A stretch of DNA of 64,000 nucleotides from a virus (Duplodnaviria; Heunggongvirae; Uroviricota; Caudoviricetes). Positions 59,401-62,400 of the stretch are shown one piece after another. The stretch is from IMG/VR virus record IMGVR_UViG_2721755646_000010. The stretch is one strand, 5' to 3'. Positions within the stretch are counted from its first letter, which is position 1. Each line of letters begins with the position of its first letter. The position numbers are program-made.

Positions 59401-62400
59401 GCAGGCCCGCAGGGGCCGAAAGGTGACAGGGGAGAGCGGGGAGAGACCGGTCTGACGGGAAATGCAGGTCCACAGGGTCCAAAGGGAGATACCGGTGCGG
59501 CAGGCCCGGCAGGCCCACAGGGACCGAAAGGAGAAACAGGTGCGACTGGCCCGGTGGGGGCAACCGGACCTCAGGGACCGAAGGGCGACCCGGGGGAGAC
59601 ACAAATCCGTTTTCGTCTGGGGCCGGGAAACATTATTGAGACAAACAGCAATGGCTGGTTCCCGGATACAGATGGCGCACTCATCACCGGACTGACCTTT
59701 CTTGCCCCCAAAGATGCCACACGGGTTCAGGTTTTTTTTCAGCATTTGCAGGTCAGGTTTGGTGACGGGCCGTGGCAGGATGTTAAGGGGCTGGATGAAG
59801 TGGGCAGTGATACAGGCAGAACAGGAGAATGACATGAACATACTAAAAAAACTTATGCAGCGTCTGTGTGGTTGCGGAAAGCATGATGACCGTGAACACG
59901 GGGAGTTACTTACAGCACAGCTGCGACTGGGGCCGGCAGACATCCTGGAGTCAGATGAGAATGGTATTATCCCGGAGCAGGACAGGGTAATCACGCAGGT
60001 GGTGATACTGGATGCGGATAAAAAGCAGATACAGTGTGTGGTAAGACCGCTGCAAATCCTGCGTGCTGACGGGACGTGGGAAAATATTGGCGGGATGAAA
60101 TAGCCGACAGCTTCACAAAAACCGGAGTCCGGCTCCGGTTTTTTGTTGTCACGTATGGGGGATGTTTGTTACAGCTATTTAAGTCTGGAGTTCAAATTAA
60201 AATAGGGAGCTTTGTTATGCCATTAACCTCAGATATTAGATCACATTCATTTAATCTTGGGGTGGAGGTTGTTCGTGCCCGAATTGTAGCCAATGGGCGC
60301 GGAGATATTACAGTCGGTGGTGAAACTGTCAGTATTGTGTATGATTCTACTAATGGGCGCTTTTCATCCAGTGGCGGTAATGGCGGATTGCTTTCTGAGT
60401 TATTGCTTTTGGGATTTAATAGTGGTCCTCGAGCCCTTGGTGAGAGAATGCTAAGTATGCTTTCGGACTCAGGTGAAGCACAATCGCAAGAGAGTATTCA
60501 GAACAAAATATCTCAATGTAAGTTTTCTGTTTGTCCAGAGAGACTTCAGTGCCCGCTTGAGGCTATTCAGTGTCCAATTACACTGGAGCAGCCTGAAAAA
60601 GGTATTTTTGTGAAGAATTCAGATGGTTCAGATGTATGTACTTTATTTGATGCCGCTGCATTTTCTCGTTTGGTTGGTGAAGGCTTACCCCACCCACTGA
60701 CCCGGGAACCAATAACGGCATCAATAATTGTAAAACATGAAGAATGCATTTATGACGATACCAGAGGAAACTTCATTATAAAGGGTAATTGAAATGAACA
60801 TTACCATTTATTTTATTTAATGAAACATCCTGCAAACTGATATGAATTACTGAATGAGGTTTTTATGCCTGTTACCACCTTAAGTATCCCAAGTATATCT
60901 CAATTATCTCCTGCAAGAGTACAGTCTTTGCAGGATGCAGCCAGACTTGAAAGTGGAATAAGAATATCCATTGGTAGTGGCCAATATTCTGTTCACTATG
61001 TCCAACTACTGGATGGATTTTCAGTTGAACCGGTGAGAGGAGGCTTACTGGATAGGCTATTGGGGCGTGAGCATCGAATGGATAGAAGGGCTGTGGCTCT
61101 GGAAAGGCAATTAAATGGAGGTGTCGATTTTTTAAGTAGTGTTAATAACTATTTTCAGAGTGTCATGGCAGAACACAGAGAAAATAAAACAGGTAATAAA
61201 ATATTAATGGAAAAAATAAATTCTTGTGTATTTGGAACGGATTCTAATCACTTTTCTTGCCCGGAGTCATTTTTGACATGCCCGATAACGCTGGACACAC
61301 CTGAGACTGGAGTGTTCATGAGAAACTCACGAGGTGCTGAGATATGCTCTCTATATGATAAGGATGCGTTAGTGCAACTTGTTGAAACTGGTGGAACTCA
61401 TCCTCTGAGTCGAGAACCTATAACAGAATCAATGATTATGAGAAAAGACGAATGTCACTTTGATGCAAAAAGAGAAGCTTTTTGTTGTAAGTGATAATTA
61501 ATGCTATAAATATAGTTTTGTGTATTTTTATTTTTTACTAAAGCAAAATTAAATTATTAAAATGGAGGGAGAGGAATGCCTGTAGATTTAACGCCTTATA
61601 TTTTACCTGGGGTTAGTTTTTTGTCTGACATTCCTCAAGAAACCTTGTCTGAGATACGTAATCAGACTATTCGTGGAGAAGCTCAAGTAAGACTGGGTGA
61701 GTTGATGGTGTCAATACGACCTATGCAGGTAAATGGATATTTTATGGGAAGTCTTAACCAGGATGGTTTATCGAATGATAACATCCAGATTGGCCTTCAA
61801 TATATAGAACATATTGAACGTACACTTAATCATGGTAGTTTGACAAGCCGTGAAGTTACAGTACTGCGTGAAATTGAGATGCTCGAAAATATGGAATTGC
61901 TTTCTAACTACCAGTTAGAGGAGTTGTTAGATAAAATTGAAGTATGTGCATTTAATGTGGAGCATGCACAATTGCAAGTGCCAGAGAGCTTACGAACATG
62001 CCCTGTTACATTATGTGAACCAGAAGATGGGGTATTTATGAGGAATTCAATGAATTCAAATGTTTGTATGTTGTATGATAAAATGGCATTAATATATCTT
62101 GTTAAAACAAGGGCGGCTCATCCTTTGAGCAGGGAATCAATCGCAGTTTCAATGATTGTAGGAAGAGATAATTGTGCTTTTGACTCTGACAGAGGTAACT
62201 TCGTTTTAAAAAATTAAGATAGCAATGGCGGGTTAACTTTTCGTAAAATGAAATTAATTCTCGGTACAGCATGTAAAACGCGGCACCTCGTATGCAAGAA
62301 CGTGCTGCGGTTGGCTGGTGAACTTTCGATAGTGCGAGTATTGAATGATTTCCAGCCGTTACTGATTTTACTCGTTAATTAGCGAACAAACCACTCGTCA

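Follow-up and report, generated by a model that had tools for sequence, protein, structure and literature searches.

The question raised by this locus is why a small open reading frame (ORF) is found directly behind the tail fibre gene of a prophage, and what its product might do there. The window (the whole stretch of DNA that was analysed) is 64,000 nucleotides of the IMG/VR virus record IMGVR_UViG_2721755646_000010. Its DNA is that of lambdoid prophages of O157:H7-type Escherichia coli, with 100% identity over the query in many O157:H7 chromosomes, and two of these prophages, A and B, carry an intact copy of the ORF. The original prediction described a conserved, cysteine-containing ORF of 89 codons coupled to the fibre gene and suggested that it was a recombination landmark or a small regulator. 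Here we describe the ORF as a real coding gene under strong purifying selection, whose product resembles the C-terminal knob of the fibre itself. It is probably a dispensable helper of the fibre and not a regulator. The prophage B locus contains the following features.

58513-59832, + strand: collagen-like side tail fibre gene of the EPclA type (PfN, coiled coil, collagen Gly-X-Y, PfC knob)
About 59605-59796, + strand: the fibre's own PfC domain (amino acids 365-428)
59823-59836, + strand: translational-coupling junction AGGAGAATGACATG (Shine-Dalgarno sequence in the last fibre codons, fibre TGA, 1 nt, ATG)
59834-60103, + strand: small PfC ORF, prophage B copy (89 amino acids and a TAG stop; begins MNILKKLMQRLCGCGKHDD)
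59834-59914, + strand: N-terminal extension of the small protein, amino acids 1-27 (predicted helix at amino acids 3-12, then CGCGKHDDREH)
59915-60103, + strand: free-standing PfC (Phage_fiber_C) domain, amino acids 28-89, and stop codon (PF06820, PHROG 576)
60104-60171, + strand: conserved terminator element (hairpin 60106-60150, core 60117-60143, then a T run)

The small ORF and the knob of the collagen-like fibre

The ORF lies directly after the fibre stop in prophage B, as had been stated, with 1 nt between the fibre TGA (59830-59832) and the ATG at 59834. The remaining two forward frames contain 5-7 stops over its length, which together with its wide occurrence argues that it is not a chance ORF. 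Pfam finds PF06820 alone in the protein, at 123.2 bits (E 5.3e-36), with amino acids 28-89 aligned to positions 1-64 of the 64 in the profile. Membership of this family is set by a gathering threshold of 25 bits over the whole 64-position profile. The match to PHROG 576, an 89-amino-acid 'tail fiber protein', covers amino acids 1-89 and profile positions 1-89 of 89 (E 1.8e-60), and an identical protein (WP_001023407.1) is labelled 'phage tail fiber C-terminal domain-containing protein' by PGAP. The free PfC domain and the fibre's own knob share 34% protein identity (E 8e-11), and self-BLAST finds no DNA similarity between 59605-59800 and 59915-60100. Judged by these matches, the small protein and the C-terminal knob of the fibre are paralogues, a relationship that the original prediction had missed.

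The same searches bear out that the protein is unlike the usual tail fibre assembly chaperone. Pfam returns no Caudo_TAP or Tfa family, and no chaperone family is matched in Pfam, NCBIfam or PHROG at E up to 0.1. The protein is not covered by any NCBIfam model, the anti-phage defence models of PADLOC give no match at E up to 1, and nothing was found in Rfam. A sequence search against PDB chains gave chance matches only (E ~0.5). The description as cysteine-containing holds in part. Across the alleles of the small ORF, C12 and H17 of the N-terminal extension are invariant, while C14 (C/Y/H/R) and H22 vary, so that the cysteine motif is half conserved. A lipoprotein signal, which the CGC motif might suggest, was ruled out because the short hydrophobic stretch is broken by charged residues and no lipobox is present.

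The upstream gene encodes a fibre of 437 or 439 amino acids. In the annotation of an identical locus PGAP starts it at the ATG at 58519 (437 amino acids), which is the length of EPclA in Table 2 of PMC3368898. Pfam places PF08400 at amino acids 3-135 (8.7e-69), PF01391 at amino acids 253-311 and beyond (3e-18) and PF06820 at amino acids 365-428 (3.5e-35). An EPclA protein is recognised by an N-terminal PfN domain, one collagen Gly-X-Y domain and a C-terminal PfC domain, all of which this fibre contains, and the order PfN, coiled coil, collagen, PfC is that described for EPclA by Ghosh et al. 2012 (PMC3368898). The isolated PfC of EPclA trimerises and renucleates the collagen helix (PMC3368898). 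The corresponding fibre of phage phi24B (gp61) forms six lateral fibres, the function of which is unknown according to a preprint (bioRxiv 10.64898/2026.04.10.717836); its C-terminal domain is probably not BamA-binding, although the case made there is indirect. Beside these fibres no Tfa gene was found in the window.

Between lom and the fibre gene, at 58481-58502, is a terminator-like hairpin with a T run and an 8-bp stem in which 7 pairs are GC. With the downstream terminator element, the predicted RNA fold of which has -22.1 kcal/mol (z = -2.9), it flanks the pair of fibre gene and small ORF on both sides. Both genes presumably depend on late antitermination.

The two copies in the window lie in a shared block of homology (10372-11055 in prophage A, 59651-60335 in prophage B). 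The block is found in 706 of 5,426 complete E. coli genomes, at a median of 11 places per genome, and the small ORF occurs in 297 phage records that include Shiga toxin (Stx) phages of the Stx1 and Stx2 types and cdt phages, both short-tailed and long-tailed. Its homologues are limited to E. coli, Escherichia albertii and Citrobacter rodentium. PfC proteins number 316 in a set of 5.8 billion proteins and form 95 representative clusters in an exhaustive hidden Markov model (HMM) search; long proteins with SprB and CarboxypepD_reg repeats that also appeared in the HMM search are probably spurious, repeat-summed matches. A scan of the GTDB representative genomes gave only E. albertii and a 725-bp contig assigned to 'Xanthomonas pisi' (L007, NZ_JPLE01000138.1). 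The ORF on this contig is 93% identical to that of E. coli and identical to the VT2-Sakai allele, and the contig is probably a contamination of that assembly. One cluster (P0040, 73 amino acids, 762 member sequences) is a widespread O157 allele with a frameshifted N-terminal extension (MMTVNTG...) and an intact PfC part, so that at least one paralogous copy of the clonal O157 lineage is N-terminally defective.

Previously described phages carry the same gene. ORF68 of Sp5 (the Stx2 phage of O157 Sakai), 'gp59' of phi24B and orf59 of VT2-Sakai encode the same 89-amino-acid protein with ~93% nucleotide identity. As in the window, these copies stand behind a collagen-like fibre gene and belong to PF06820 and PHROG 576. 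They differ in that the phage is short-tailed, the fibre gene before them encodes the longer EPclB, and their position is mid-module; in the podovirus VT2-Sakai the gene directly follows the EPclB gene, centrally within the tail module and without effector cargo alongside. The copy described here follows the EPclA gene of a lambda-like prophage as the last gene of the tail operon, with effector cargo next to it.

Selection, probable translational coupling and expression

Two samples of the small ORF were compared. The first consisted of 88 copies picked by protein similarity and was therefore biased, and the first dN/dS estimate was made on the best 80 tblastn hits. The second consisted of IMG/VR loci chosen by the non-coding terminator sequence, and not by the protein, in order to avoid this conservation bias. 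It contained 133 terminator units, 103 with an intact ORF, 5 with a full-length but disrupted ORF, 21 with a 3' fragment only, 2 with none and 2 at contig ends. Thus 103/108 full-length copies are intact. Among the 79 distinct alleles in this sample the proportion of synonymous differences (pS) is 0.137 and that of nonsynonymous differences (pN) is 0.026, an overall pN/pS of 0.19. By region, the ratio is 0.076 for the PfC domain and 0.38 for the N-terminal extension. The small ORF is a real coding gene under strong purifying selection.

The knob of the fibre itself, measured in the first sample, has a pN/pS of 0.35 and a pS equal to that of the small ORF domain in the same loci. The nonsynonymous rate of the fibre knob is about five to seven times higher than that of the free copy (pN/pS 0.35 vs 0.05-0.08), and the changes in the fibre knob cluster at a few positions (GN/AS, N/H, D/A, R/Q, GF/GL/GM/VF). 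The small ORF is not preferentially preserved. Of the 87 loci with an upstream gene that could be scored, 22 have a disrupted fibre gene (~1.3 kb) and 3 a disrupted small ORF (270 nt), which is similar per nucleotide. Between common variants in the fibre knob and in the small ORF, which are ~250 bp apart, linkage disequilibrium is r2 ~0.02, as compared with 0.06-0.24 within each segment (loci L088-L206). Such a low value points to very frequent gene conversion or recombination among co-resident paralogous prophage copies.

The junction between the two genes has the structure expected of translational coupling. A Shine-Dalgarno sequence (AGGAG, 59823-59827) lies in the last fibre codons with a spacing of 6 nt to the ATG. 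The 30 nt before the ATG, which include the Shine-Dalgarno sequence, the stop and the start context, are identical in 84/88 copies from other loci, and in 88/88 copies the ORF starts 1 nt past the stop of a collagen-like fibre gene that ends in PfC. Expression is indicated by purified virion preparations of phi24B. The supplement on virion liquid chromatography-tandem mass spectrometry lists the peptides ADGTWENIGGMK and VITQVVILDADKK (bioRxiv 10.64898/2026.04.10.717836), and both are exact matches to the small ORF.

The role of the small protein

We tentatively favour, as a serious possibility, the reading of the small protein as a genuine late phage gene product, translationally coupled, trimeric, and a non-essential accessory of the fibre tip. 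The small ORF travels with the 3' end of the fibre gene in short-tailed Stx phages and in lambda-like siphophage prophages. Its translation would start by coupling or re-initiation, when ribosomes reach the end of the fibre gene. The protein may trimerise through its PfC domain, by analogy with the PfC of EPclA, the one for which trimerisation has been demonstrated. It could then dock on the fibre knob as a loosely bound cap, or it might aid or tune the nucleation of knob and collagen. In the genome it would fill the slot that is held by tfa behind stf in lambda.

A more specific form of this reading is possible but rather unlikely. The free PfC would be a duplicated, split-off knob that stacks non-covalently on the tip as a conserved cap and replaces the Tfa-type chaperone in collagen-like fibres. 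If true, such a cap would account for the free PfC being more conserved than the knob that it covers. A distant collagen-containing protein (P0168, 565 amino acids) has four tandem repeats of ~85 amino acids, each of which ends in 35 residues that are similar to the C-terminal half of PfC (VVVLDAD...RADGTW), with 46% identity over 35 columns and an hhalign probability of 91.5%. The protein may be a remote relative with PfC-like modules in series, and it hints, weakly, that stacked PfC domains are structurally feasible.

Several observations weigh against such an accessory role at the fibre tip. Among the Sp5 genes that Mondal et al. 2016 deleted in frame was the orthologue ORF68, and phages without it were normal in plaque formation and lysogenisation on K-12, so that the gene is non-essential (PMC5155283). 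When produced in E. coli, recombinant EPclA forms trimers with no other phage protein present (PMC3368898); because the small protein is not needed for the trimer, any role in assembly would not be obligatory. In the phi24B supplement the count column gives 3 for each small-ORF peptide and 47 for the C-terminal peptide of the fibre, which makes them ~15-fold rarer. Peptides at such a low level in the virion could be carry-over, and the preprint neither lists the small protein as structural nor discusses it in the text (bioRxiv 10.64898/2026.04.10.717836). Co-variation between the fibre knob and the small ORF does not rise above the synonymous background (r2 0.023 vs 0.026), a null result that follows from linkage disequilibrium already being ~0.02. 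Finally, the AlphaFold2 (AF2) monomer of the small protein has a confidence (pLDDT) of 54, which is low, and predicts a helix at residues 3-12; a Foldseek comparison of this low-confidence model with the PDB returned nothing meaningful.

The authors of the Sp5 deletion proposed that the gene is an 'intragenomic reservoir' for fibre variation (PMC5155283), that is, a silent cassette of spare knob sequence graftable onto the fibre, with a free protein that has no role. Two chimeras are in line with this proposal. P0063 (L212:4-291), just upstream of nleL, has collagen Gly-X-Y sequence fused in frame to a small-ORF-type knob, with a GP|ADIL microhomology as the point of fusion; the contig begins at P0063, which may therefore be partial rather than a complete knob-swapped fibre. 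P0121 (92 amino acids, L211:2537-2976) joins the 5' part of the small ORF to the 3' part of the fibre knob in a 280-bp tandem duplication, and lies between a 437-amino-acid fibre gene and a normal 89-amino-acid ORF. However, these chimeras are single clusters of 1-4 sequences as compared with thousands of canonical copies, and homologous exchange is not favoured between knob copies in which self-BLAST detects no DNA similarity. A cassette that is not expressed would also not hold a pN/pS of 0.08 in the domain, a conserved Shine-Dalgarno sequence and ATG, and detectable peptides. We regard a silent reservoir as unlikely. The chance is smaller still that a programmed +1 frameshift or stop bypass at the fibre UGA-C gives some fibres a second tandem knob, with the ORF as an alternative C-terminus. 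The +1 frame, in which the small ORF is read, is open for 44 codons upstream, but an open run of this length is unremarkable by chance (about 0.12). UGA-C and the upstream Shine-Dalgarno-like AGGAG superficially resemble the prfB site, in which the Shine-Dalgarno-like element stands at a 3-nt gap. Here AGGAG overlaps the P-site codon without such a gap and lies instead 6 nt before the conserved ATG, and the P-site codon GAA (followed by U) is unable to re-pair in the +1 frame, so that the site is not of the prfB type even though UGA-C is present. P0122 is a mutational fusion of the fibre and small-ORF kind, and P0168 carries its four PfC-like repeats in one chain. The phi24B authors searched a database of hypothetical fibre-ORF fusions, with an entry marked 'Spike or just gp59?' (bioRxiv 10.64898/2026.04.10.717836). 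The normal C-terminal peptide of the fibre dominates, no peptide from the junction or the upstream frame is listed in the part of the supplement examined, and Mondal et al. found no frameshift signal (PMC5155283).

It is likewise doubtful, to much the same degree as a frameshift, that the gene is purely a recombination landmark or a small regulator, as originally predicted. On the side of a landmark, the nleL and nleG cassettes of the window are flanked by four copies of the terminator and by a decayed piece of the ORF, 21 of the 133 terminator units elsewhere retain only a 3' fragment of the ORF, and r2 drops to ~0.02 over roughly 250 bp. There are also many chimeric ORFs in which Lom, DUF1983, CII or tape-measure sequence is followed by a terminal PfC domain. 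A landmark would nevertheless not hold nonsynonymous change 5- to 13-fold below the synonymous change that accumulates beside it (pN/pS 0.19 overall, 0.08 in the domain), and podoviral Stx phages carry the gene mid-module without adjacent effector cargo. For a regulator, no DNA-binding or regulatory family is matched in Pfam, NCBIfam or PADLOC. The configuration in prophage A, which had suggested either role, is a one-off junction (see below). Least probable of all, and very improbable, is an obligate assembly chaperone that replaces lambda Tfa. The position directly downstream of the fibre gene and the lack of a Tfa homologue would fit such a chaperone, but the viable deletion (PMC5155283) largely refutes it, EPclA and the isolated PfC trimerise unaided (PMC3368898), and there is no similarity to Caudo_TAP.

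A fibre-tip accessory can be compared with three known systems. The PfC domains of EPclA and EPclB belong to the same Pfam family, and the published PfC trimerises alone and nucleates the collagen helix (PMC3368898). The small protein differs in its 34% identity, in being a separate polypeptide with a 27-amino-acid N-terminal extension and no collagen or tail-attachment domain, and in being far more conserved than the fibre knob. Lambda Tfa and the assembly proteins of Mu and P2 (Caudo_TAP, PF02413) are alike in that their genes lie directly downstream of a side-fibre gene and in that a role at the distal tip is plausible. Some Tfa proteins remain bound to the fibre tip. The small protein has no sequence similarity to this family, is half the size, is knob-derived and is dispensable. 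In the invertible segments of Mu and P1, and in the template repeats of diversity-generating retroelements (DGRs), a second C-terminal coding unit of the fibre also lies just downstream. The small ORF is in direct orientation, has its own Shine-Dalgarno sequence and ATG, and its knob is a copy without DNA similarity; no recombinase or reverse transcriptase was found among its annotated neighbours. Both the DGR template and the invertible-segment models were ruled out, by the lack of DNA identity (59605-59800 vs 59915-60100), by gene orientation and by the lack of a neighbouring reverse transcriptase.

Collagen-like side fibres occur on nearly all Stx-converting and effector-carrying prophages of enterohaemorrhagic E. 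coli, and their biological role is listed as an open question in the 2026 phi24B cryo-electron microscopy preprint (bioRxiv 10.64898/2026.04.10.717836). A conserved partner of the fibre tip would give an obvious handle on this role. The small gene, its PF06820 domain and its dispensability in the laboratory were already on record. The incremental additions are the contrast in selection between the two knobs, the signal for coupling, the peptides from virions and a corrected argument about retention in prophage A.

Prophage A and the boundary of the effector cargo

The original prediction rested on the retention of the ORF in prophage A where the fibre itself is gone. The relevant features of the window are the following.

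7798-7863, + strand: lone terminator element, joined directly to truncated tail gene I; the nleL cassette comes next
10372-10553, + strand: truncated 3' end of a fibre gene, 182 bp, joined to the nleL 3' flank by a 7-bp microhomology (10372-10378)
10554-10823, + strand: second intact small PfC ORF (prophage A); protein 98% identical, same Pfam result
10825-10891, + strand: ~66-bp terminator element after copy A
11375-11537, + strand: decayed 3' fragment of a third small ORF (11375-11470; in-frame TGA, 7-nt deletion) and its terminator (11471-11537)

The last 180 bp of the fibre gene were said to be kept in prophage A, and 182 bp are indeed present before copy A. Prophage A is a composite, the parts of which join 11 nt past the nleL stop via ATGGCTG (7 bp; junction 10361-10378), in the middle of the PfC coding sequence. 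The left part (K, truncated I, terminator, nleL) has an Sp6-like arrangement, in which espN follows nleL. The right part matches another prophage, which in strain 319 keeps an intact fibre of 404 amino acids before the same ORF. No place spanning the junction between nleL and the fibre (10361-10378) was found in the 5,426 complete E. coli genomes, which indicates a strain-specific rearrangement or an assembly chimera and not a maintained state. The argument that retention without the fibre reflects independent selection therefore fails at this one-off 7-bp junction. It is undercut further by related strains that keep an intact fibre upstream and by a rate of disruption per nucleotide similar to that of the fibre gene.

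The suggestion of a landmark has more to it at the level of DNA. Sequence conservation ends about 60-80 nt past the stop of the small ORF, and there the effector cargo (NleG genes) diverges. In the window four ~66-bp terminator copies and one decayed ORF fragment bracket the nleL and nleG cassettes. The ORF-terminator block is a real recombination landmark, the left edge of exchangeable effector cargo, and it defines the site at which such cargo is swapped between prophages. It behaves as a landmark because it is the last conserved piece of the tail operon, which leaves the constraint on the protein unexplained. Of the two suggested roles the recombination boundary thus stands, and nothing suggests a regulator.

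The order of the block can be followed in related loci. L211 (3246-3460) has the intact order of fibre, small ORF, terminator and nleL, and by comparison the lone terminator at 7798 is a remnant left after deletion of I'-J-lom-fibre-ORF. The decayed fragment at 11375-11537 has an NleG pseudogene on one side and the next NleG gene on the other. Many IMG/VR loci have the same fragment in the corresponding place, which suggests that a single old event has spread with the cassette.

A type III secretion effector role for the small protein was ruled out by context, that is, by its place mid tail module in podoviral Stx phages and its decay in an island of C. rodentium. This island, in C. rodentium ICC168 (L210:4479-5237), is not a prophage and adjoins a lymphostatin-like gene. 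It carries a mini-fibre of 166 amino acids (PfN-PfC, with the collagen deleted), followed by a small ORF of 78 amino acids that has decayed by truncation of the N-terminus and a 4-amino-acid deletion. The decay fits a phage-linked role rather than one of benefit to the host. In L208, a draft-assembly copy of the same locus, an NleG-family gene is called just downstream, so that the order of fibre end, small ORF and NleG survives in a degenerate remnant.

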